47,862 bases of DNA from a phage, in sequence record OZ346152.1. One strand, 5' to 3'. How positions within the stretch are numbered: the stretch's first letter is position 1; every line of letters begins with the position of its first letter. Below the pieces are notes generated by a model that was not told the origin of the DNA, searched no databases, and was given only the letters and a program-made list of their open reading frames with translations. This document shows, one piece after another, positions 6,210 to 42,448 of the stretch. Both the position numbers and the translations under genes were made by a program.

Positions 6210-6215
6210 CATCTA

Positions 6216-9216: not shown

Positions 9217-9879
9217 ATGCACTTGCCTAATGGTTCTCAAATTTTCATCGGCGTTAATATGGGTGAGCCAATTAGCGCGACTCAAATCAGCAATGCTGAT
9301 AATCCTGTTTTTACAACCAAAAACACTCAAAGCATCAAAAAAGGCGCTTATGTTCTTATTGAAACATCTTCTTGGGGCAAACTTGTTAGTCGAGTGCTTC
9401 GAGTTAAGGAAGTATCAGATAATGTAAGTGTTACTCTTGAGGGTGTTAGCACTAAAGATACAAACGTATTTCCAGAAGGACAGAACACAGCAACTTTCCG
9501 AGAAGTGAAATCTTGGGTAGAGGTTCCTTGCGTGCAGGATCTTGCGCAGGACGGCGGCGAGCAACAGTATTACACTTATCAGTGTTTGGCTGATGACCAA
9601 GAGCAGCAGTTGCCGACCTACAAGAGCGCCGTTTCTCTCACCTATACTTTCGCGCATGAGTATGATAATCCGATTTATCCGATCTTGCGCGAGGCTGAGG
9701 AATCCGGCGACGTTACCGCCTTGCGTATGTACGTGCCGAAAGCTAAAGAGATGCGTTGCTGGGCTGGCGTGTTGTCTTTTAATGACATTCCGCAAACCAC
9801 CATGAACGAAATTGAAACTGTTTCCCTTTCCGTATCTCTGAAAGGTCGATTCACGTTCTTACCTTCTGACGTTAAGTAA
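9217..9879 (+). CDS. major tail protein (putative)
   Basis: 220 aa; AAGGAGGA RBS; followed by a terminator and then the chaperone / tape-measure genes. Confidence 0.5.
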   Translation: MHLPNGSQIFIGVNMGEPISATQISNADNPVFTTKNTQSIKKGAYVLIETSSWGKLVSRVLRVKEVSDNVSVTLEGVSTKDTNVFPEGQNTATFREVKSWVEVPCVQDLAQDGGEQQYYTYQCLADDQEQQLPTYKSAVSLTYTFAHEYDNPIYPILREAEESGDVTALRMYVPKAKEMRCWAGVLSFNDIPQTTMNEIETVSLSVSLKGRFTFLPSDVK

Positions 9880-9884
9880 AACAA

Positions 9885-9905
9885 GGGGCGTTGCGCCCCT
9901 TTTTT
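9885..9905 (+). terminator. rho-independent terminator
   Basis: GGGGCG-TT-GCGCCCC hairpin plus TTTTTT. Confidence 0.75.
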
Positions 9906-9944
9906 CATTCCTGTAAAATCAATCTATCAAATAAATTAATTCCA

Positions 9945-9964
9945 CTTTTAACAAAAAGTGCTAT
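9945..9964 (+). promoter_or_regulatory. box-motif copy in reverse orientation (CTTTTAACAAAAAGTGCTAT) abutting the SD of the tail chaperone gene
   Basis: Perfect box core; on the minus strand N18 then TAGATT would point leftward into the terminator. Confidence 0.3.
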
Positions 9965-9978
9965 AAGGAGATCTTGAG

Positions 9979-10296
9979 ATGGCAAAGATGAAACTAACGT
10001 TAGGCCCACTGCCTGATTTTAAGCTGCCTGTTTCTTTCGTGCTTCCAAATGGTGATGAGCAAGTTATTGTTTTTACCGTGCGCCACAAGAAGGCAAGCGA
10101 GATTCACGAACGATACACGGCAGAAAAGCCGATGAGTGACGTAGAAATGATCACTTTCCTTGCTTCCGGTTGGGATCTGGAAGATGAATTTAACGAGGAA
10201 AACGTTGCTAAATTGCTGGATTATTACCCTTCTGCTTCATTATCGCTGACTGGTCATTATATGAAAGCACTTGCGGGGCAGCGGGTAAAAAACTAA
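9979..10296 (+). CDS. tail assembly chaperone (gpG-like)
   Basis: 105 aa immediately upstream of the tape measure; ends just after an A_AAA_AAC slippery heptamer. Confidence 0.6.
   Translation: MAKMKLTLGPLPDFKLPVSFVLPNGDEQVIVFTVRHKKASEIHERYTAEKPMSDVEMITFLASGWDLEDEFNEENVAKLLDYYPSASLSLTGHYMKALAGQRVKN
10287..10293 (+). other. -1 programmed ribosomal frameshift slippery heptamer A_AAA_AAC
   Basis: Heptamer sits 1 codon before the chaperone stop; the -1 frame is open from here to 10613. Confidence 0.55.
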
Positions 10297-14512: not shown

Positions 14513-15243
14513 TGATTAGTGCAAAAATTAAACTTGAAATAATGCAGCACGTTAAAGAGGAATACCCTAAAGAGGCTTGCGGCGTCATAACTCAAAAGTC
14601 ACGGGTACAGAAATATCACCGCATAACCAACGTGCATGACGATCCAGAAAATCATTTTGAAATGGATGCCGTAGAATACGCTGAATCGCTCGACAAAGGC
14701 GAATTAATCGCGGTGGTACATTCCCATTGCGGTGACGGTGCTAGTACGATACCGAGCGCGCACGACTCGTGTATGTGCGATGAAATGGGTGTATCGTGGA
14801 TTATAGTTTCATGGCCCGAAGGTGATATGAGAATTGTCGAGCCGCAGGAGAGGCCGCTTATCGGTCGCCCGTGGTCGCTGGGGTCGTTCGATTGCTGGGG
14901 TCTTATCATGGCATGGCATAAACAGCACGGAATAGTATTGAATGACTTCCGAAAGCCTTACGAGTGGTGGAAGTCAGAATATGGTGAAAATCTTTACCAG
15001 GATAATTATTTGAAAGAGGGATTTGTTGAAACTAACGAGCCTCCAAAACCTGGTGATATGGTGATTATGCAGCTATCATCGCCAGTCTGGAATCATGCGG
15101 GGATTTATTTGGGTAACAATCAGCTATTACATCATGCGTTTGGAAAGCTATCTCGCATCGACTTGTATTCTGGATGGTATCAGGAGCACACTGTAAAAAT
15201 TTGCCGACATAAGGATCTGAAATATGACATTGAAAGTAATTAA
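14512..15243 (+). CDS. tail tip assembly protein (gpK-like, MPN/JAB plus NlpC/P60)
   Basis: HSHCGDG metal-site-like motif and DCWGL Cys-peptidase motif; TAATG-coupled ATG at 14512 (track start 14410 runs into the upstream gene). Confidence 0.6.
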   Translation: MISAKIKLEIMQHVKEEYPKEACGVITQKSRVQKYHRITNVHDDPENHFEMDAVEYAESLDKGELIAVVHSHCGDGASTIPSAHDSCMCDEMGVSWIIVSWPEGDMRIVEPQERPLIGRPWSLGSFDCWGLIMAWHKQHGIVLNDFRKPYEWWKSEYGENLYQDNYLKEGFVETNEPPKPGDMVIMQLSSPVWNHAGIYLGNNQLLHHAFGKLSRIDLYSGWYQEHTVKICRHKDLKYDIESN

Positions 15244-15901: not shown

Positions 15902-18900
15902 ATGGCTAAACATATGATAAGCGGCAGTAAGGGCGGAAGCAAAAAGCCATACGTGCCAAAAGAGATGGAAGATAACCTGATCTCGATAAACAAGATTAAA
16001 GTTTTGCTGGCTGTATCTGATGGCGAGTGCGATCCAGATTTCACGTTGCGTGATCTTTATCTTGATGATGTTCCTGTAATTGCCAGCGATGGCACTGTTA
16101 ACTATGAGGGGGTAACGGCTGAATATAGGCCAGGCACACAGACGCAAGATTACATCCAGGGGTTTACTGACACATCAAGCGAGGTGACAGTTTCGCGAGA
16201 TATTACAGCAGACAATCCCTATATTATCTCTGTAACAAACAAAAATCTTTCCGCAATCAGAATCAAGATTCTGATGCCAACTGGCATAAAACAGGAGGAT
16301 AACGGCGATCTTGTTGGTGTAAGGGTTCAATATGCCGTAGATATGGCTGTTGATGGCGGTTCTTATAACGAGGTTATGAGAGATGTAATTGACGGCAAGA
16401 CAAGATCAGGGTATGACCGCAGCAGAAGGATTGATCTTCCTAAGTTTGAGGAGCGCGTTTTAATCAGAGTTAAGCGACTGACTCCAGATAGCACATCTTC
16501 AAAGGTGACTGATAAAATCAAACTGCAAAGTTACGCTGAGGTTGTGGATGCAAAATTCCGTTATCCTCTGACTGGACTTGTATTCGTAGAATTTGACAGC
16601 GAATTGTTTCCTACGCAAATCCCTAACATTTCTATAAAAAAGAAATGGAAGATTATTAATGTGCCAAGCAACTACGATCCAATATCAAGAGAATATCACG
16701 GGTCATGGGATGGTACTTTTAAAAAAGCGTGGTCAAATAATCCTGCATGGGTTCTTTATGATCTGGTGACGAATCAGCGTTATGGACTTGACCAGCGAGA
16801 GTTAGGAATACAGATCGACAAGTGGAGCTTATACGAGGCAGGTGTTTACTGTGATCAGAAAGTTCCAGACGGCAAGGGCGGGACAGAGCCTCGCTACCTA
16901 TGCGATGTGGTGATCCAGAATCAAGTAGAGGCTTATCAGCTAATCCGTGACATTTGCTCAATCTTTCGCGGAATGAGCTTTTGGAATGGAGAGAGCTTAT
17001 CAATCGTGATTGATAAACCGCGCGATCCATCATACGTGTTTACTAATGAAAACGTCATCAACGGTGATTTTCAGTACACAGCAGCAAGCGAAAAAAGCAT
17101 GTACACGCAATGTAATGTGACGTTTGACGACGAACAAAACATGTATCAACAGGACGTCGAGGGTGTTTTTGATACTGAGGCGGCATTACGATTTGGATAC
17201 AATCCAACAAGCATTACAGCGATCGGGTGTACACGCAGGAGCGAAGCGAATCGTCGCGGTCGGTGGGTTTTGAAAACAAACCTTAGAAGCACTACTGTAA
17301 ACTTTGCTACTGGACTGGAGGGGATGATTCCATCAATAGGTGATGTGATTGCTATCGCTGATAATTTTCAGAGCAGCAACCTAACGTTAAACCTATCGGG
17401 CCGAGTGATGGAAGTTTCAGGATTGCAGGTTTTCGTTCCGTTTAAGGTTGATGCTCGTCCTGGTGATTTTATTATCATCAACAAGCCGGACGGCAAGCCA
17501 GTTAAGCGAACGATCTCAAAGGTGAGCGCAGACGGAAAAACCATTGAGTTAAATATTGGATTTGGTTTTGATGTTAAGCCTGATACTGTTTTTGCGATTG
17601 ACCGTACTGACCTTGCGTTGCAGCAATACGTTGTGACAACTATCAGCAAGGGTGATGACGAAAACGAGTTTACCTTTTCAATCACGGCTGTGGAGTACGA
17701 TCCGAACAAATACGACGAGATTGATTATGGCGTAAACATTGATGACAGGCCAACTTCAATTGTTCAGCCTGACGTGATGGTAGCGCCTGAGAACGTGCAG
17801 ATCTCTTCTTATTCTCGCGTCGTGCAGGGTGTAAGCGTTGAAACTATGGTTGTGTCGTGGGATAAAGTGCCTTATGCATCGCTGTATGAAATGCAGTGGC
17901 GTAAAGGTGATGGAAACTGGCTGAATACACCACAGACCGCAAACAAAGAAGTTGAGGTTGAAGGTATTTATTCAGGTAACTACCAAGTAAGGGTGAGATC
18001 TGTTTCTGCTTCCGGTTCTACGTCGCCGTGGTCAAAGATTGCAACCGCCACCCTGACAGGTAAAGTTGGCGAGCCAGGAGCGCCGATTAATCTTACAGCT
18101 TCTGATAATGAAGTTTTTGGCATTCGTGTTAAATGGGGTATGCCGGAAGGATCAGGCGATACGGCTTACATTGAGCTTCACCAATCGCCGGATGGGACGG
18201 TGGAAAACTCAAGTTTGCTTACGCTGATCCCGTATCCTCAATATGAGTATTGGCATAGCACGTTACCAGCGGGTCAAGTTGTATGGTATAGAATCCGTAG
18301 CGTTGACAGGATCGGCAACGTTTCCGGCTGGACTGACTTTGTTCGCGGCATGGCGTCAGATGATGTTGAATCTGTTTTAGGCGACATTCTGGACAAGATT
18401 TTTGATACCGAAGCGGGTCAAGAAATCAAAGAGAACGCCATAGACAGTGCAAACAAAATCAAAGACCAGGCGCAATCAATCATCCAGAACGCATTGGCAA
18501 ACGATGCCGATGTGAAGTGGACGCGAGTACAAAACGGAAAGCGTAAGGCTGAATATGGTCATGCACTGGAGCTTATTGCTACCGAAACGGAGGCGCGAGT
18601 AACTCAAATCGAAGAGTTAAAGGCGTCAATTGATGAAGATATAGTTTCAAGTATCAAAACCGTTCAGGAAGCGATTGCCAACGAATCAGAGACGCGAGCT
18701 ACTCAAGTGCAGCAGCTTGATTCTAAATTTACGAAGGAAATAGACGGCGTAAAACGAGATACGGCTGCAAGTATTGGCGAGGTAAGGCAAACAATTGCCA
18801 ATGAATCAGAAGCGCGCGCCCAGGCAGTTCAGCAGCTTGACGCCAAGTTTACGAAAGAGATAAACGACCTTGACGAAGTTATCAAGACCGAAGTCGAGGC

Positions 18901-23460: not shown

Positions 23461-23491
23461 AAAAAGCCCCGCATGTGCGGGGCATTTTTTT
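23461..23491. terminator. bidirectional rho-independent terminator
   Basis: GCCCCGCA-TG-TGCGGGGC hairpin flanked by an A-run and a T-run, between convergent ssb and fibre genes. Confidence 0.7.
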
Positions 23492-25868
23492 AGTTAAGAG
23501 TAGTAGGATTGTTGATTAGCTTTGACAGTAAATCTTTTAATTCTGCAACCTCATTTTCAAGTTTGCTTATGCGATCATCACTTTCACGGCATACTTTCAC
23601 AAGCAATCCAGTAACAGCACCATAATCAACAGATAAGAATCTTTCCTCGCCAACTAACTGATTTCCATCCTTAGTTGGACCAGCAAGATCCGTGTACTGA
23701 GTGAATCCGCCAACAGCTTCCGGTATTGCCTCCATTACTTCTTGAGCAATTACCCCAGCATAAGGTAAACCATTCTCCTTAAGCGTGTAAGTGTATCCGC
23801 TCATTTTGCGCAATGATTCAGTCGCGTTTTCAATCTCCTCAATGTTGTCCTTAAGATCTCTGTCAGATACTTGATTGAATGCCGTCGCATTTACAGGGCC
23901 GTTAACTTGAAGATGCTTTGAGTTATCTTTATTTAACTGACCGTAAAAAATCCACCCAGGGCCGTTATCGAAAGCCCACTCAATAACAGACGGTCTATCT
24001 GACCCGTTCCCCCACAATTTGAAACTTGCAGGGTGTGATGAGTTTCCGTCGTTCTGCATATTGAAATACTTACCACTCGGTCGGTCTATCTCTAAACTCG
24101 CCGCCTGTACATATGCTTTTCCCGCAAAGTCTTTCGTACCTAACACAACCCCAGAATCGATAAGTTCAACCTTGCTTTTCGTTATGTCATTTAGAAATAA
24201 CGCACTCGTTCCAGTATCTTTACCTAAAAACCAAAGACGTGTGCCTGCGGAGTTGTACCCTGTTACGTGCAGCGGTTGGTTGTTTGTTGATGCTGTTCCG
24301 TCGATACGAAAACCGCCATTAGCGGTTGTAACTTTAATGCTTGGTACGGTCATAGCGAATGTGCCACTGGCCGCAAGGCCGTTATACGCGATCAGCTTGT
24401 TGTCATACGAAAGGCCGCCATCATCACGCAGCTGTAGCACTTTCTGCGACGTGCGGTTGCGAATGCCAACATCCGTGCCTCCTACAAACATTTCGACGAT
24501 TCGATCACCGCTTTTAGCTCTCACGTAAGCGTTATATTCCGGCGACGACCCCGCGTTATACAACTCGTACCATTTAGACCAGATGCCAGTAGTCGCGTTA
24601 CTAAGCCATCGCATAAAGCGACGCCCGCTATTGTATCCTGTAAACGTCTGTATGCAGCTTTTAGGATCGTTAGCGCCAGTGCGCTGAACAAGTAGACAAC
24701 CTGCTTCCTGAACGGGATAATTACGCTCCGGCGTTGCGTTGGCAGATAAGCTAGTATAATAAAATCCAGCCTTATCACCCTGAAGGATGTTAAGGTCTTC
24801 ACTAACCAACGTTGCCCGGCGCTCATGCATGACCTGAAGGTTTGCGCGCGCTCCCTGGTCGTTCGATGCTCCTGTCCCGCCGTCACCGATCGCCACGTCA
24901 CCATTAGCACCCAGCTTCGCCAGTTCAATGGCACCCACATTTCCAGATGAGCCGTTAATCGCGGCATTGTTTCCAGCGAAAACCTTCACGCGAGAGGTCA
25001 GGTAGTCAACGTTAAACGCAAAAAATGTGTCACCAGCACCCCCGCACACCCCAGGACCATATTTGAACGGCGTCATCTCGCCCGAAGGGAACTGAGAAAT
25101 ATCATCAACGCGCCAAAAGCCGCCTTTGACCGAATCGCGCAACCGCTTGAGCATATCCCTTACGCCAGTCGGCGCAGGTAATGTTACACCCGCATACGGC
25201 ACTCTATTTTGAGCTTCTGAACTTTCAGCAGCAGCCGCTGCGCGATCAGCCTCTGTTTTAGCCTTGTTTGCACTGTTTGCAGCATTAGTTTCCGATGTTT
25301 TAGCGTTTGTTTCAGAAGTCTTCGCGGCACTAGCCGAGTTAGCAGCATTAGTTTCCGATGTTTTAGCCGCATTCTTACTTGCATTAGCTGCATTTTCAGA
25401 TGCTTTGGCATTAGTTTCCGATGTTTTAGCGTTTGTTTCAGAAGTCTTTGCAGCACTAGCGCTCTGTTTTGCTGATTCAGCGCCTTGTTTCACCTGATTC
25501 ACAAGATCTTTCAACCCATCAAGATCGAAATCTCTAAAAAATTCAAGCGCGTCAGCAATCTCCGTTTCCTTGCTTTGATAGTAACGCAGTGTTTCCGCTA
25601 CGTCCTGCGCCAGCCCGTCAACCGTCAACGAGTCATGAAGCAAGATCAGGTAATTTGTCTTCTGGACTACCGCGCCGCCAGTAGTAATTGCGCGAATGCT
25701 TGTATCGCTAATCACCTCTGTAATCACAGCAGCTTGCAAAGGTTGAGTAAGAAAGAAAATAGTTGCACCTGGGCGAATCAATGTTAATTGCTCACGCCAT
25801 TTTGTATCGTAACCAGTTACATAACCTTGCGCGTCCATAGACGCTTGGCCTTGTCTGTAAATCGCCAT
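23490..25868 (-). CDS. side tail fibre with C-terminal intramolecular chaperone (S74-like) domain
   Basis: 792 aa from ATG at 25868 with AGGAGG RBS (track start 25892 is GTG); N-terminal SETNAK-type repeats; C-terminal [24 protein letters not shown]. Confidence 0.75.
25282..25460. repeat. imperfect tandem repeat, period about 63 bp, three copies, coding
   Basis: Near-identical blocks gcattagtttccgatgttttagc.. at 25282, 25345 and 25408 encoding the fibre's TSETNAK repeats. Confidence 0.7.
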
Positions 25869-25885
25869 TTGTAAAATCCTCCTAA

Positions 25886-25905
25886 ATAGCACTTTTTGCT
25901 AATGA
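25886..25905 (+). promoter_or_regulatory. box-motif copy (variant ATAGCACTTTTTGCTAATGA), orphan, abutting the side-fibre SD on the opposite strand
   Basis: Diverged proximal half and no -10 at N18 on the plus strand. Confidence 0.3.
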
Positions 25906-26958: not shown

Positions 26959-27435
26959 TTAGCTATTCGTGCTGTTATCACCTTTGTAGAATCGTCCGCC
27001 TGGTTCGTAGTCTGAATTTTTGACTACGCGCAACATTTCGTATTTGTCGCAACGGGTAGTAAGGGGCTTACCGTTAGAGTCAAACCGCAGGTCTGGACGA
27101 CAAAACGAGGCGCGGTATCCTTTGCATCCATTATATTTGTAGTCGTTATGCACTTTTTGTGCTCCGGCGGCTGAAATCATACCACGCTTTCGCCATTGGT
27201 TAACTACTTGCTGAGATACGCGCAGACGTCGAGCCATAGCAGGAACACCGCCGTAATACTCGATCAGAATGTCAAGGCGAGATTTCAGGCTTGCTTTTAC
27301 CTCATCTCGCAGGATAAGAAATCCGGTTCGGTGTTTTCGTGGCTTTTTGTCTTTACCTCGTCGCGTTCCGTTGTTACCGTTAATAGTGCGCTTGTCGATC
27401 TCACCCGTAGACACTGCAATTCGTGCATCTTTCAT
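26959..27435 (-). CDS. HTH DNA-binding protein (Cro/XRE-like helix flanked by basic and Cys-containing segments)
   Basis: 158 aa; MARRLRVSQQVVNQWRKRG helix-turn-helix-like segment; N-terminal KKPRKHR; GAGGTG RBS. Confidence 0.4.
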   Translation of the reverse strand: MKDARIAVSTGEIDKRTINGNNGTRRGKDKKPRKHRTGFLILRDEVKASLKSRLDILIEYYGGVPAMARRLRVSQQVVNQWRKRGMISAAGAQKVHNDYKYNGCKGYRASFCRPDLRFDSNGKPLTTRCDKYEMLRVVKNSDYEPGGRFYKGDNSTNS

Positions 27436-27446
27436 CTAGTCACCTC

Positions 27447-29520: not shown

Positions 29521-29939
29521 TGGCTATAACTGATAAAGGAGATTATCTTGAGTTTTACGAAAGAGATCCAACCGACACAAGAAGGGAGGTTAATCACCAG
29601 ATAGATAGTTTTCAGTGGTTGACTTATGCTCATCCTTACTTGCTGGCGTGGCATACGGTAAACGAGAATGAGAAGTCTAAAGTAACGGCTATGATTGATC
29701 AGCAGTCCGGCTTGGTTAAGGGAGTAAGCGATTTCATCATCCTGATTGGTTTAAACGGAAAATACCCCTTTGCAGCGATTGAGATCAAACGAGTGAATAA
29801 ATCAGGCAAGGGGAAAGCATCACCAGTCAGCGATGAGCAAAAGGCTTTTTTGCGTCGCGTTCGCAGCTTAGGAGGATTCGCTGCGGTAGCCTACGGATTC
29901 AATCAGTTTAAGTTGGCTATTGAATACATGCTTAAATAG
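29520..29939 (+). CDS. VRR-NUC domain nuclease
   Basis: 139 aa; D..E.K core (SDFIIL..AIEIKR); TAATG-coupled to the helicase; TAG stop inside a box. Confidence 0.55.
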   Translation: MAITDKGDYLEFYERDPTDTRREVNHQIDSFQWLTYAHPYLLAWHTVNENEKSKVTAMIDQQSGLVKGVSDFIILIGLNGKYPFAAIEIKRVNKSGKGKASPVSDEQKAFLRRVRSLGGFAAVAYGFNQFKLAIEYMLK

Positions 29940-30748: not shown

Positions 30749-31006
30749 ATGAAAAAAGAGAGAAGCGTTTATTTAAATGAAACTGGCGAATGGTTGTTAT
30801 TTCGCGCTATGGTGTGCGATGCACTTGATAAAAATCCTAACGTGAAAAAGATGATTGATTGCGATCCGTGGGAATTTTCAAGCGCATTAGATATGAGCTT
30901 TGAGGAGACAAGAAAACTCCCGCTTGAAAAATGGCACGAACAAATCAGAAATGACATGCAAGAGTTTGTCGATTCGTGGAATTTTCAGCACGGAATGATC
31001 CACTAA
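30749..31006 (+). CDS. hypothetical protein
   Basis: 85 aa; GGAG RBS; stop TAA-TAG merges into a box. Confidence 0.4.
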   Translation: MKKERSVYLNETGEWLLFRAMVCDALDKNPNVKKMIDCDPWEFSSALDMSFEETRKLPLEKWHEQIRNDMQEFVDSWNFQHGMIH

Positions 31007-31049
31007 TAGCACTTTTTGTTAAAACGCCCGGCCTAGTGTCGGGCATAAT
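31006..31049 (+). promoter_or_regulatory. box-type promoter unit (box, N18 hairpin GCCCGGCCTAGTGTCGGG, CATAAT)
   Basis: The whole 44-bp unit is nearly identical, in inverted orientation, to the unit at 34223-34266. Confidence 0.55.
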
Positions 31050-31081
31050 TATTTCAACGAAGCAAACATGAGGAAATAAAA

Positions 31082-31261
31082 ATGGTGGTATTCGATAAAC
31101 GCGCTTTTAATCTTGCTCAAGAAGTAGCAAAAGGTTCAGTAGAGGGCGGTTCAAAGGAAGGATTCCAGTTTGATTGGGGCATCGCGATGTTTTTACTGAA
31201 AGTTGCATACGGTCACGCGCCAATTGAACAAGCGGAGACATATTATAAGCATGAAGGTTGA
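31082..31261 (+). CDS. hypothetical small protein (59 aa, below the track cutoff)
   Basis: ATG with GAGGAAA RBS about 30 nt downstream of the box promoter; ORF translated by hand. Confidence 0.3.
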   Translation: MVVFDKRAFNLAQEVAKGSVEGGSKEGFQFDWGIAMFLLKVAYGHAPIEQAETYYKHEG

Positions 31262-31493
31262 GCAAGGAAGAGATGCAGTATGGAATCACGCTAAAGAATG
31301 CGGAATAGCCGACGATATAAAGAAGATCGCGCAATACTTTGATATTGCAGATGTGAGCATAATTAGCGGCGACAAGATGACTTTCCTCAAGGAAAGGCCG
31401 CGAAAAATGGTAAGAGTTCCAGCAGTTCCAACAAAAATTGATTTCAAAGAGGCAATGGCTAAAATCCGAGAGCCTCGCAAATATTATAAATGA
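31251..31493 (+). CDS. hypothetical protein
   Basis: 80 aa from the first ATG of track ORF 31203..31493; overlaps the preceding small ORF. Confidence 0.3.
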   Translation: MKVEQGRDAVWNHAKECGIADDIKKIAQYFDIADVSIISGDKMTFLKERPRKMVRVPAVPTKIDFKEAMAKIREPRKYYK

Positions 31494-31587
31494 GGATAGT
31501 TATCATGTGGCGCTTGTTTGTTCTACCGTTACCCGTTATCATCGCTGTTACAGTTATGTACCATATAGTGATGAGATAGGTAGCAGA

Positions 31588-32703
31588 ATGAAAAATGTAA
31601 AAATTACAGATGAGCAATTCAAGATCGAACGGGCGGCAGGTAAGACATATAAACAGATCGCTCAAGAGTACGGAATGAATGTGAGAAGCGTCGAGCGTCG
31701 CGCGGCGCGTCTTGCAAAGCAAGGGCAGTTATCGACCATCGGGGCGCCTGGTTTTGGTGTTCATGGTGAGTCAGTAATGACTGACAAAGAAGGAAATATA
31801 ATCCTCAAGTGGACCAAAACCAGCAAGGATAAAGAGCAATTAGAGGCACTGATGCGCGCAGCAATGGAGGCATTTAGCGAGGAAGTGCCGCGATTAGATC
31901 CAGTTCCATTGCAGGAGCGTAACTATAATGAAACGCTTTCATTGTATCCGATCTTTGACATGCACTTAGGCGCTATGGCCCATAAGCACGAATGCGGCGA
32001 AAATTGGGATACTGCGACGGCAGAGCGCGTTATGAATAACTTTATCGACTATGCTTTGATGTGCGCACCGGACAGCGAAAAGGCTGTTATCCTGATTGGT
32101 GGCGATATGCTGCATAGCGACGGCCTGGAGGCGGTGACACCTGCAAGCGGTCACGTACTTGATCAAGATAGCCGATATGCAAAATTGGTTTACGTTGCAA
32201 TACGTGCAGTGCGCCGCGCAATTAATAAAATGCTGTTAAAGCATAAACATGTTGAGGTCCAGGTCGTAGAGGGTAATCACGACCAATCAGGAATGATTTG
32301 GCTACGCGCAGCAATGGCGGCAGCATATGAGAACGAGCCGCGCGTTTACGTTGATGTTTCTCCTCGCGTTGTTCACCACACGCAATACGGAAAAACTTTC
32401 CTTGCGTACCATCACGGGCACACAGTGCGCAAACCTGAGACTTTGCTAATGATGTGCGCGTCAGATTGGCGGGAGGACTTCGGAAACTCAAAAACTATGT
32501 ATGCGCACGTAGGGCACTGGCATCACCAGACTGTGACGGAAACGTCGCTTGGCATCGTTGAGGTGCATAGCACCCTGGCGGCAAAAGACGCATACGCCGC
32601 GCGCGGTGGCTGGAGATCTCGACGCCGTGCAGCGGTTATCATTTACGACAAAGAGCATGGAGAAGTGGGGCGATTTGTTCACTATCCAGAAATGATGAAT
32701 TGA
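31588..32703 (+). CDS. metallophosphoesterase (calcineurin / SbcD-Mre11-like) with N-terminal sigma-region-4-like HTH
   Basis: Motifs DMH, GGDMLHSD, GNHD, GHWHH; N-terminal TYKQIAQEYGMNVRSVERRAARLAKQ; first ATG of the frame (track start 31438 is TTG). Confidence 0.55.
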   Translation: MKNVKITDEQFKIERAAGKTYKQIAQEYGMNVRSVERRAARLAKQGQLSTIGAPGFGVHGESVMTDKEGNIILKWTKTSKDKEQLEALMRAAMEAFSEEVPRLDPVPLQERNYNETLSLYPIFDMHLGAMAHKHECGENWDTATAERVMNNFIDYALMCAPDSEKAVILIGGDMLHSDGLEAVTPASGHVLDQDSRYAKLVYVAIRAVRRAINKMLLKHKHVEVQVVEGNHDQSGMIWLRAAMAAAYENEPRVYVDVSPRVVHHTQYGKTFLAYHHGHTVRKPETLLMMCASDWREDFGNSKTMYAHVGHWHHQTVTETSLGIVEVHSTLAAKDAYAARGGWRSRRRAAVIIYDKEHGEVGRFVHYPEMMN

Positions 32704-32749
32704 TGAATTTTTATTTAAATCAATGACAAATTAAATCAAAAACTTGCAA

Positions 32750-32779
32750 AGGGGCGGCGTTTGTCGCCTCTTTTTTTTG
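32750..32779 (+). terminator. rho-independent terminator (moderate)
   Basis: AGGGGCG..CGCCTCT stem with one G-T pair followed by an 8-nt T-run. Confidence 0.45.
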
Positions 32780-32848
32780 TTTAATTTTTTACCATGTAAG
32801 TTTATCATTCGGTCAATATATTGACTTTAATTAATATGGAGAATAAAA

Positions 32849-33064
32849 ATGAAAGATTTTATTAACGCAGCTACCGCCGGATCTGGCGGTTCATCTATCG
32901 CAAGCGCAGCTACAGGGCAGTTAACCATTGCTATTGCCAGCTTTGTTTTAATGGCTGCATTCGGTGCATGGGGCGCTTACCTTCGCTGGCGTGATAGTAA
33001 AAAATTCCACGAGGCGATCGAAAAAGGTGATATTCAAAAAGCTATTGAAATCAGGGGCAAGTAA
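32849..33064 (+). CDS. holin (pinholin-like)
   Basis: 71 aa; weakly hydrophobic Gly/Ala/Ser-rich first segment then a hydrophobic second TMD and charged C-terminus; directly upstream of the endolysin. Confidence 0.55.
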
Positions 33065-33555
33065 TGAGCATAAAGAACAAGGTAGCGGCTGCGGCCTTTG
33101 GCGTTGCGGTTGCCTTGACTTCTCCACTTCTTGAAGAGATCGAAGGGGTAAGATACAAGCCATACAAAGATATTGCGGGAGTATGGACTGTTTGCGCAGG
33201 AATAACCGGACCAGATGTTATCCTGGGGAAAACGTACACTAAAAAAGAGTGTGATGCTTTGTTGGCTAAACATATCCAGGTTGCTAAAAAAGAAGTTGAC
33301 AAGCAAGTTAAGGTTGACATTCCTGATAGTATGCGTGCAGCAATGTACTCATTCACTTATAATGCAGGAGTTGGAGCTTTCAGAAATTCAACAATGCTGA
33401 AACTCATCAACCAGGGGAAATTAAACGAGGCTTGCGATCAGCTTTATCGTTGGACGTATTACCATAACCCCAAAACAGGAAAGCGCGAGAAGTCTAAAGG
33501 CTTACTTAACAGGCGCAAGGTCGAATACAAATATTGCACAATGGATCTGAAATGA
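33064..33555 (+). CDS. SAR endolysin (GH24 lysozyme)
   Basis: N-terminal signal-anchor-release-like segment ([15 protein letters not shown]) then lysozyme E..D..T catalytic arrangement ([26 protein letters not shown]). Confidence 0.75.
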
Positions 33556-33947
33556 TGAAGAAATTTTTACTTACACCAATCGCAATGGCGGTGATCTTGT
33601 CTGGATGTTCAAGCGTTACGCCACTGACCGGATTAATCGGCAGTAAGCCGGAAATAACAGCACAGGCTGGCGCGGAGAACGTGAAGCAGACAGTTGGCAT
33701 TACAGCAAAGCAGGACGCCAGCACAAAACAGAAAACCACAATAAAGGAATCTGCGGTTGACAAGGTGGACACGTCCAGCAAGAAGGATTTCACAACATCA
33801 ACCATTCAGGCCAATACCATCAAGGCAGACAAAATTCAGGTCGTGCAGGGTAATAACGGCAGATGGTACGATCCAGTAATCATATGCGTGGTTGTGTTAA
33901 TTGTGCTGATTTGTCTTTACTGGAGAGAAAAGAAAAAGGAGGCTTAA
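33552..33947 (+). CDS. unimolecular spanin (T1 gp11-type)
   Basis: Lipoprotein signal with lipobox LSGC at the N-terminus and a single C-terminal TMD ([16 protein letters not shown]); overlaps the endolysin stop. Confidence 0.7.
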
Positions 33948-33965
33948 TGCCTCCTTTATTTTTAT
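33938..33965. terminator. bidirectional terminator
   Basis: GGAGGC-TTAAT-GCCTCC hairpin with T-rich runs on both strands, between convergent genes. Confidence 0.55.
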
Positions 33966-34186
33966 GCGTCGGGCCACATATGAGTTTCGTTTGTTGGCTT
34001 GTTCGATTCGTCGTACTGCCTTACTTCAATGCTGAAAGTGTCGCCGTACAGTTCTGCAATCTTGCGCTCATTTTCAACCGCCGATTGCTCACTCCATCCA
34101 AAATCCCTGTCGTAAATTGTCGGGATTTCAGCAGAAGATCCGTTGTCATGATTATATACGCGAACTACTAAAAACTTGCTGGACAT
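33962..34186 (-). CDS. hypothetical protein (acidic)
   Basis: 74 aa; AAGG RBS; driven by the box promoter at 34223-34266. Confidence 0.4.
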   Translation of the reverse strand: MSSKFLVVRVYNHDNGSSAEIPTIYDRDFGWSEQSAVENERKIAELYGDTFSIEVRQYDESNKPTNETHMWPDA

Positions 34187-34222
34187 AATTTTACCTTTTG
34201 GTTGTTTCGTTTCGATGAAACA

Positions 34223-34266
34223 AATATACCCGACACTAGGCCGGGCGTTTTAACAAAAAATGCTAT
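34223..34266 (-). promoter_or_regulatory. box-type promoter unit (box, N18 hairpin, TATATT), inverted copy of the 31006 unit
   Basis: Minus strand ATAGCATTTTTTGTTAAAAC, GCCCGGCCTAGTGTCGGG, TATATT. Confidence 0.55.
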
Positions 34267-34457
34267 TCCATACGCTTTACCGTAACCAGTAATACACCAT
34301 CATCATTGCATAAAACATGTTCAGTGGTGCTAAAAGCGCGCATATCTGAATAAAGTAGCGTAAGTAAAGCATGAATAAAATCCTCATGTGATATTGAATT
34401 TACGGCGCAGTGCTTCAAGATCTTGTCTATTAGCTTTTGCCTGGAACAATTCATCAT
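34263..34457 (-). CDS. hypothetical protein (overlaps the 3' end of the 34384 gene out of frame)
   Basis: 64 aa; GGGGAG RBS; TAG stop inside the box; real status uncertain. Confidence 0.25.
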   Translation of the reverse strand: MMNCSRQKLIDKILKHCAVNSISHEDFIHALLTLLYSDMRAFSTTEHVLCNDDGVLLVTVKRME

Positions 34458-38945: not shown

Positions 38946-38976
38946 CTTTAAATCCTCGTTTGTTGTCGATGGGTGT

Positions 38977-39020
38977 AATATACCATTCAGGAGCACATCG
39001 TTTTTAACAAAAAGTGCTAT
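38977..39020 (-). promoter_or_regulatory. box-type promoter unit (box, N18, TATATT)
   Basis: Minus strand ATAGCACTTTTTGTTAAAAA, 18 nt, TATATT, then ..CATCGACAAC..GAGGATTT, ATG. Confidence 0.55.
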
Positions 39021-39790: not shown

Positions 39791-40016
39791 GGTTATTACT
39801 CCTTATCGTAAAGATTTAAAGACGTATAGTTTATTGCGGTAACTATATATCCGCATTGTTATTTCTCGCAATGCAATATATTCCTTCCTGTTTTCCGGCA
39901 TCCTGGCGAGCAATAACAGGCAGTATTTATAAGCGCGGTCAAGATTCCTTTCCGTGCCCCTGCAATATCCCTTGTTGCGCCTGGAGCGGTACAGCCATAA
40001 CAATTTCTTGAACATT

Positions 40017-40226
40017 TCAGATACGCCCATACAGATCGCAAACCTCGTTGATAAAACAGCGTTGAGACTCTTTATTGTCACGCTCAAAAATTGCGCGGCA
40101 TTCAAACTTAAGATTATGCACGATGACAACAACCATATTTTCAGGCATTGAGCGGTTATAGCGTCGCGCGTCAGTGATTAAAACATCCATACCCATCTCA
40201 TGTGCTTTCTTGATCACATCCAACAT
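40017..40226 (-). CDS. hypothetical protein
   Basis: 69 aa from ATG at 40226 with AGGAGA RBS (track start 40250 is TTG). Confidence 0.35.
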   Translation of the reverse strand: MLDVIKKAHEMGMDVLITDARRYNRSMPENMVVVIVHNLKFECRAIFERDNKESQRCFINEVCDLYGRI

Positions 40227-41909: not shown

Positions 41910-42448
41910 TGAAAAAATACACTTTCGAACTGTGGGGCAAGAAGTACGAATTAATCACCAGCAAGCCGATTGTTATCGTTGATCTGGATGGCACACTATC
42001 GGACGGATCGCATCGCTTGCACTTGTTGCCAACTGAAAACTTGCACCTTACCGAATCGTGGAGCGAATTTAACAGGGCCGCCGCCGGAGATTCGCCGATT
42101 AAAAGCACGATCGCAGTTATTAACGGTTTGTGGGTGTCAGGATTTGCCATCGTCATCTTGACCGGACGCAGCGACGAGGTGCGCTACGAAACCTGCAAAT
42201 GGCTTAACGAGAACGGCGTGAAGTTTGACGAAATCATCATGCGCCGCCAGGAGGACAACCGAAAGGATACGGTTATTAAAGAAGAAGCCTTGCGCGCTAT
42301 TGGCCTGGACAACATTGTTTGCGCCTTTGACGATTCGCCGAACGTGGTTAAGCACTTCCGCAGCTTGGGGATCACAACCTATCAGGTCACGGAATACGAC
42401 AAGCCACACGCTCACCTGCAATCTCACGGCGTGGAGTGTTTAAAATGA
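41909..42448 (+). CDS. HAD-superfamily phosphatase (putative nucleotide or polynucleotide phosphatase)
   Basis: Motif I IVIVDLDGTL (DxDGT), motif II ILTGR, C-terminal FDD; TAATG-coupled start. Confidence 0.55.
   Translation: MKKYTFELWGKKYELITSKPIVIVDLDGTLSDGSHRLHLLPTENLHLTESWSEFNRAAAGDSPIKSTIAVINGLWVSGFAIVILTGRSDEVRYETCKWLNENGVKFDEIIMRRQEDNRKDTVIKEEALRAIGLDNIVCAFDDSPNVVKHFRSLGITTYQVTEYDKPHAHLQSHGVECLK

Follow-up and report, generated by a model that had tools for sequence, protein, structure and literature searches.

Two facing promoter-like units around the lysis genes of a Warwickvirus phage are probably paralogous members of a genome-wide T1-type repeat family

Here we report an analysis of two near-identical units of 44 base pairs (bp) that face each other across the lysis genes of a phage (sequence record OZ346152.1; 47,862 nucleotides (nt), the whole stretch being referred to as the window). 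The window phage is a T1-like coliphage of the genus Warwickvirus (Drexlerviridae, Tempevirinae). We consider it probable that the pair consists of paralogous members of a genome-wide family of T1-type promoter units, which start two ordinary, converging gene groups. In each such promoter unit a 21-nt box would be followed by an 18-nt spacer, a −10 hexamer and a conserved leader, and the ATG of the next gene would lie 73–84 nt from the start of the box. The left unit would start a rightward group encoding proteins of 59 and 80 amino acids (aa) and an exonuclease, the right unit would start a one-gene accessory cassette of the “moron” kind, and the two resulting transcription units would converge on ordinary terminators. 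The hairpin formed by the spacer most likely marks the 3′ end of the upstream gene group, immediately before transcription restarts.

A preliminary description of this DNA had placed the units at 31006-31049 on the plus strand and 34223-34266 on the minus strand, and both were recovered at these positions. The left unit reads ATAGCACTTTTTGTTAAAAC GCCCGGCCTAGTGTCGGG CATAAT and the right unit (34266-34223, −) reads ATAGCATTTTTTGTTAAAAC GCCCGGCCTAGTGTCGGG TATATT, confirming that the two share a box and an identical 18-nt spacer. The 38-nt pattern of box plus spacer occurs in exactly these two places in the window, with 0.00 occurrences expected from 100 shuffles. The pair is also the longest inverted repeat of the window, with arms of 62 nt (31005-31066 and 34206-34267) that are 89% complementary and lie 3139 nt apart, and a 39-nt core of box and spacer in which one position differs. 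The left box (31005-31025, +), a copy of the 21-nt direct repeat of T1-like phages, matches AATAGCACTTTTTGTTAAAAC at 21 of 21 positions, and the right box, AATAGCATTTTTTGTTAAAAC (34247-34267, −), matches it at 20 of 21. Both −10-like hexamers, CATAAT (31044-31049, +; 18 nt past the box) and TATATT (34223-34228, −), agree with the sigma-70 −10 hexamer at five of six positions, and the distance from the start of the box to the ATG is 77 nt on the left and 81 nt on the right.

Allowing a few mismatches, about 17 copies of the box AATAGCACTTTTTGTTAAAAC are present on both strands of the window; this family, the spacer hairpin and a strong terminator between the left unit and the lysis genes, all described below, go beyond the preliminary description. 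In the early and replication regions all copies are co-directional with the next gene, and among the window units the box starts 73–84 nt from the ATG. Of 15 window units, 10 have a TAnnnT hexamer exactly 18 nt past the box, as do 12 of 14 units of T1, which carries the same box family in about 18 copies. The stop codon of the upstream co-directional gene falls inside the box in 11 of the 17 units by automated open reading frame (ORF) call, and manual checking added the right unit as a twelfth, through the TAG of a 64-aa ORF. These stops are TAA or TAG within the AATAG of the box (for example 29937-29939, 31004-31006 and 34263-34265), and some 45 bp thereby pack together a gene end, the box, a hairpin and a −10 hexamer.

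The repeat itself is already known. A 2024 re-annotation of phage TLS described a 21-nt direct repeat, aaATAGCACnnnTTGnTAAAA, that it reports in 21 places (18-21 copies) and also in T1, Rtp and vB_EcoS_Rogue1, and that runs along the direction of transcription about 76 nt 5′ of start codons (PMC11447400). The conserved ends of this repeat are ATAGCAC and TAAAA, and both window units match its consensus. The window units and the TLS/T1 repeat share consensus, high copy number, co-direction with genes and distance to the start codon, and both units are copies of that repeat. The TLS paper makes no mention, in its treatment of the repeat, of the 18-nt spacing to a −10 hexamer, of hairpin spacers or of an inverted pair. 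It was the only relevant report returned by a full-text literature search on the box, promoters and transcriptomes of Drexlerviridae and T1.

Reading the pair as promoter units in a convergent arrangement, as the preliminary description did, is reasonable given the co-directional genes, the −10-like hexamers at 18 nt and the ATGs at 77 and 81 nt. The authors of the TLS re-annotation left the function of aaATAGCACnnnTTGnTAAAA open between a stoperator, an enhancer site and an UP element (PMC11447400), and this openness is one of several points that weigh against our interpretation. The fixed 18 nt from box to −10 hexamer favours a promoter role over that of a “stoperator”. Neither unit, however, has a sigma-70 −35 hexamer 16-18 nt from its −10 (TAAAAC at 18 nt scores only two of six as a −35, and TTGTTA within the box lies 22 nt from the −10), a sigma-70 consensus scan of the window listed neither unit as a promoter, and a literature search found no experimental start-site or 3′-end data for any T1-like or Drexlerviridae phage. 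With no −35 hexamer and no entry in the scan, initiation would depend on some factor that reads the box. We infer both the promoter activity of the units and the nature of the factor that would recognise the box.

Known promoters offer partial parallels. In the middle promoters of T4 a MotA box, centred at −30, stands in for the −35 hexamer, and the UP elements of T5 and T4 promoters span −59 to −38. The window units resemble both in combining a good −10 hexamer and no usable −35 with an upstream box at a fixed distance, and the AT-rich core of the box, T5-N3-A4, recalls an UP element, which has been proposed as a possible role of the repeat (PMC11447400). They differ from both in the sequence of the box and in its position, about −51 to −31 for the left box if the hexamer at 31044 is the −10, and from T4 middle promoters in that no AsiA/MotA-like factor was identified.

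Several further observations concern the box family. The helix-turn-helix (HTH) at the N-terminus of the exonuclease (31588-31720) weakly resembles sigma-70 region 4 (E 0.0016, below the Pfam cut-off) and also the PHROG “D5-like transcriptional regulator”, and a Cro/YdaS-like HTH protein of 158 aa (26959-27435, −) adjoins a divergent promoter region at 27446; both proteins are candidates for a box-reading protein. A leader motif, CATCGA(C/A)AACGAA...AGGA, lies 3′ of the −10 in the units at 34267 (−), 39021 (−), 39527 (−), 40831 (−), 42602 (+) and 43920 (+) and is present in T1 units too; possible roles are those of a start region or of a signal for translation or processing. One box unit is antisense to the late genes, at 9885-9965 (−) in the gap between a 220-aa gene (9217-9879) and the gene at 9979. 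It consists of a box, an 18-nt spacer, TAGATT, the 20-nt leader GATTTTACAGGAATGAAAAA and the hairpin GGGGCGCAACGCCCC followed by TTGTTTT, contains no ORF, and could encode an antisense RNA of 40-50 nt. In its T1 counterpart (L009 ~18770-18851, −) box, spacing and leader are kept and compensating changes distinguish the two hairpins. Further antisense boxes of this kind lie at 6210 (−) and 20747 (−) in the window, at 15087 (−) in T1 and at DR7 of TLS. Scanned against Rfam at gathering thresholds, the whole window gave no match.

The spacer shared by the two units, GCCCGGC-ctagt-GTCGGG(C/T), folds as a 7-bp stem whose final base is the first base of the −10 hexamer. On the left (GCCCGGC-ctagt-GTCGGGC; 31026-31044, +) the seven pairs include one G.U and the sense RNA has a predicted folding energy of −11.5 kcal/mol; on the right (GCCCGGC-ctagt-GTCGGGT; 34228-34246, −) the corresponding value is −10.1 kcal/mol. 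GC-rich hairpin spacers, unrelated to one another in sequence, are found in five of the 17 units (29935, 31005, 34267, 37103 and 43920). As the remaining 12 units have no hairpin spacer, the hairpin is an add-on rather than a component of the promoter core. A hairpin promoter of the N4 type, read by a phage RNA polymerase, was considered and rejected, since most units are hairpin-less and no phage RNA polymerase or sigma gene has been reported in the literature on the T1-like group. Nor does anything follow from the CTAG in both loops, which was considered as a special signal: this tetranucleotide is under-represented (34 versus 62 expected), yet it occurs 34 times.

Comparison of the left and right units of 16 relatives, drawn from GenBank and IMG/VR contigs and comprising 16 distinct sequences, argues that the hairpin is under selection. 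The stem positions can pair in 95.5% of cells compared to 89.7% in shuffles, none of 500 of which reach this value, and only 18-46% pair with slid partners. Both sides have changed in three of the seven pairs (G-C to A-U, C-G to A-U and C-G to U-A), a result reached by 14 of 500 shuffles, although these compensatory changes may stem from only a few independent events. The pair 27-35 is G.U in seven of the 16 sequences, which on the opposite strand is a C/A mismatch, and at several independent variants wobble pairs exist on the sense strand only. The sense stems are also 3.9-4.8 kcal/mol more stable than the antisense stems (−7.6 kcal/mol on the left, −5.3 kcal/mol on the right). Because G.U on one strand is a mismatch on the other and the sense stems are stronger, the selected structure is most likely an RNA structure of the sense strand.

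The position of the hairpin constrains what such an RNA could do. Each unit's own start would lie 3′ of its −10 hexamer, so that only polymerases arriving from the upstream gene group would transcribe the hairpin, and it is on this ground that we take it to mark the 3′ end of that group. The stem begins 20 nt (left) or 17 nt (right) past the stop codon of the co-directional gene. Both hairpins appear in a permissive terminator scan, but with only 4-5 U within the first eight nt, the U tract being merely the −10 hexamer plus a T-rich leader, and with d-scores of −38 (left) and −34 (right) compared to +30, +4 and −12 for three canonical terminators nearby. Such poor U tracts make efficient termination doubtful, and the hairpin may instead act as a leaky terminator, a pause site or a stem-loop that stabilises the 3′ end.

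In the T1 RefSeq record the orthologous hairpins are annotated as rho-independent terminators (38973-39001, 39998-40024 and 41980-42007). The left hairpin has its positional ortholog at 39998-40024, where the CCCGGC/GTCGGG stem and the preceding gene are the same and the annotation as a terminator is by prediction only. The box and the overlapping −10 are unannotated in the T1 record, and the window hairpins differ from a typical terminator in their clearly negative d-scores. In the table of TLS repeats DR12 abuts terminator T62 and DR10 precedes T57, and the same paper quotes the “transcripton” idea for T1 (PMC11447400). The layout of the window matches that idea, of terminator-bounded modules that restart at once.

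The pair has a long history. The sites and the orientation of both units are shared by Warwickvirus (FritzSarasin, tiwna, tonijn, SLUR29, EcoS-95, JLBYU26, Phunderstruck, SECphi27 and MatMar) and Hanrivervirus (grams, haarsle, JLBYU09 and egaa), two genera that are only about 77% identical in nucleotide sequence over the region. The left unit also occurs in T1 and, judging from the published repeat table, apparently in TLS, and its distribution points to an ancient origin. Outside the box, left and right form the most similar of all unit pairs in each of three genomes, scoring 0.73 in the window, 0.76 in a haarsle-type contig and 0.69 in another Warwickvirus contig, compared to medians of 0.31-0.44 over all unit pairs there; the two are old paralogs. 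Among 17 genomes compared, the spacers are identical (0 of 18 positions differing) only in the window, FritzSarasin, tiwna, tonijn and SLUR29, with 2-8 of 18 positions differing in each of the remaining twelve. Perfect spacer identity thus looks like the lineage-specific extreme of an old similarity.

The flanks are side-specific in all genomes, with CATAAT on one side and TATATT on the other and with different leaders. Gene conversion over a short tract could account for the spacer identity, as could parallel change under the tight constraints of the hairpin, and the identity lies only one to three steps from states seen in other genomes. The “ctagt” loop is one step from “cttgt”, which occurs on both sides in other genomes. 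It is also found on a Hanrivervirus-type right stem and in the left unit of tonnikala, which has no right partner, so that conversion and parallel substitution are inseparable here, a further point that weighs against our interpretation.

The right unit belongs to a cassette of about 300 bp (33958-34261, −) that holds a small ORF, its leader, the −10, the hairpin and most of the box. The stretch 33958-34261 is missing from tonnikala, which is 98.5% identical to the window, and from JakobBernoulli, and in both phages the bidirectional terminator described below abuts the stop codon of the 64-aa ORF. T1 likewise has no cassette, and TLS apparently has none, since the published table has no minus-strand repeat near the post-spanin terminator. 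The cargo varies where the cassette is present: that of grams is 65% identical to the 74-aa ORF of the window (phrog_27210; 33962-34186, −), and those of haarsle/egaa and of JLBYU09 are unrelated to it. This is the pattern of a moron-like slot, in which the promoter unit and terminator would be constant and the gene exchangeable. In lambdoid phages, morons are accessory genes that have been inserted between core genes together with a promoter and a terminator of their own. The right unit, small ORF and terminator resemble them in being present or absent among near-identical phages and in accommodating unrelated ORFs, but they belong to a virulent phage and would use a family promoter of the phage itself (if active) and not one of the host type. 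The facing arrangement would result from the insertion of a small accessory gene, driven by one of the two units, where the leftward replication operon ends.

The genes lying between the units match the preliminary description: ORF calls and PHROG and Pfam scans identified two small ORFs, an HTH plus metallophosphoesterase protein, a holin, an endolysin, an Rz-like spanin and the leftward 74-aa ORF. Upstream of the left unit, an 85-aa ORF (phrog_2676; 30749-31006, +) is the final gene of a rightward group, and the first positions of the left box overlap its TAA stop. The group that the left unit would serve (31082-32703, +) consists of the 59-aa ORF (31082-31261, +), an ORF of about 80 aa (31251-31493, +) and the HTH plus metallophosphoesterase gene, a “DNA repair exonuclease” according to PHROGs (~31588-32703, +). 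There follows the lysis cassette (32849-33947, +), made up of the holin (32849-33064, +), a lysozyme-family endolysin (33064-33555, +) and an Rz-like/u-spanin (~33552-33947, +). On the far side of the right unit, the 64-aa ORF (phrog_9539; 34263-34457, −) is the final gene of the leftward helicase group, with its TAG stop inside the right box.

Two terminators partition this segment. A strong intrinsic terminator between the exonuclease and the holin (32748-32773, +; 11-bp stem, U-rich tail, z −4.2, d-score +30) is conserved across genera, T1 included, and shows compensating changes; because it intervenes, the left unit would not directly serve the lysis genes. It is followed in Warwickvirus, Hanrivervirus and T1 by a conserved TAnnAT, TATCAT in the window, with no box; in this hexamer, within 32774-32848, the lysis genes may have a promoter of their own that lacks the box. 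The bidirectional terminator of the preliminary description does exist, at 33935-33957, where AAAGGAGGC-ttaat-GCCTCCTTT forms a 9-bp stem that separates the spanin from the leftward ORF and is common to the rightward lysis genes and the 74-aa ORF.

Against this background the readings first suggested for the pair lose most of their appeal. An inverted repeat could be a substrate for homologous or site-specific recombination that inverts the 3.2-kb segment and yields two genome isoforms. Arms of 62 nt at 89% with a single difference in the 39-nt core would seem suited to this, T1-like phages encode RecE/Erf-type recombination proteins according to the T1 annotation, and since both promoters point inwards an inverted isoform would presumably keep every gene behind a promoter. 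However, when the predicted inversion junction was constructed and searched in sensitive mode against phage records, it was found in one piece in none of 341 matching records, and 107 records align collinearly with the window across 80% or more of the 3.9-kb region. None of the ten ORFs within or beside the segment was assigned to a recombinase family in PHROG and Pfam scans, and identical 21-nt boxes occur in both orientations genome-wide with no visible rearrangement. The segment shares with the invertible segments of the Gin/Cin/Hin type an inverted repeat bracketing several genes, but differs from them in that no invertase gene was found, relatives show no alternative orientation and one arm is dispensable. 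Comparing orientation and content across relatives, we found that tonnikala, JakobBernoulli, T1 and apparently TLS carry the left unit alone in an unchanged gene order, an outcome that the preliminary description had itself named as speaking against its readings; inversion and exchange of the segment as a whole therefore fail as explanations, the former being very improbable, and exchange holds only for the small leftward ORF beside the right unit. The pair is also quite unlikely to be a recent duplication of a single promoter. The identical spacer and the fact that the units are each other's nearest relatives within the family are what such an event would leave, but the shared sites in two genera, the 4-8 spacer differences in other genomes and the side-specific hexamers and leaders confine anything recent to, at most, a short conversion tract. 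That convergent transcription from both units tunes the timing of lysis, a role suggested by two units facing each other with the lysis genes between them, is highly unlikely: the terminator at 32748-32773 cuts off the left-unit operon from the holin and is followed by a conserved −10-like TAnnAT, the bidirectional terminator stands between the spanin and the leftward ORF, and phages without the right unit (tonnikala, JakobBernoulli, T1 and apparently TLS) keep the lysis cassette.

Two alternatives concern the hairpin alone. The palindromic spacer might be a DNA operator for a dimeric repressor and not an RNA structure, as it occupies the classic position of a repressor site between an upstream element and the −10 and as the phage encodes HTH proteins (the Cro/YdaS-like protein at 26959-27435 (−) and the exonuclease HTH). 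This is improbable, since the hairpin spacers of different units are unrelated in sequence, and since the stems change in compensating pairs and tolerate G.T asymmetry, which fits base pairing and not a fixed half-site. The hairpins might otherwise act on the antisense strand, as terminators of hairpin plus GUUUUAAC that insulate against outward transcripts from the convergent module. Here the box does supply G/C and UUUUAAC after each antisense hairpin, and the tail scores a little higher than its sense counterpart (nT 1.86 versus 1.10-1.71). The antisense stems are weaker, however, with an A/C mismatch in place of G.U, the right antisense sequence has no hairpin in its minimum-energy fold, and the sense-only wobble pairs noted above speak for the other strand, so that we regard antisense termination as unlikely.

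Some features of the records compared here deserve mention. The closest relatives over the region are JLBYU16, tiwna, tonijn, FritzSarasin and PeterMerian, which are 97.8-98.4% identical to the window. Twenty unannotated records named “Campylobacter phage” (for example MG065679 and MG065636) are 78-83% identical to the window region and look like T1-like coliphages rather than Campylobacter phages. Genes for HNH homing endonucleases occur at differing points of the region in relatives (tonnikala, mar001J1, EC167 and T1 genes 8, 15 and 63); that of tonnikala (L025 3732-4205) sits between the 64-aa ORF and YdbL, and one in T1 lies directly 3′ of the hairpin-bearing unit at 41955. Elsewhere in the window, imperfect tandem repeats with a spacing of 21 to 63 nt (25282-25460) encode a repetitive protein stretch inside an 800-aa tail-fibre-like ORF (23490-25892, −).

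We therefore regard the pair as ordinary genome punctuation belonging to a family-wide repeat that was already known. A broader reading, which we put forward only tentatively, would make the 44-bp unit a two-in-one “stop and restart” mark of Drexlerviridae. The stem-loop would end or stabilise the upstream mRNA and a box-dependent promoter would restart transcription, the units together with an adjacent terminator would provide conserved flanks for swapping small accessory genes, and short-tract gene conversion would keep the paralogous units alike. What our probable interpretation removes is a tempting lysis module that inverts or controls timing, leaving in its place T1-type punctuation and one slot for accessory genes. 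As a by-product, the published and hitherto unexplained 21-nt repeat gains a fixed 18-nt spacing to a −10 hexamer and, in a subset of its spacers, an RNA hairpin with covariation support that overlaps terminators annotated in T1. These features should be useful for annotating and engineering phages of the Drexlerviridae, which are common in therapy and in screens for defence systems.

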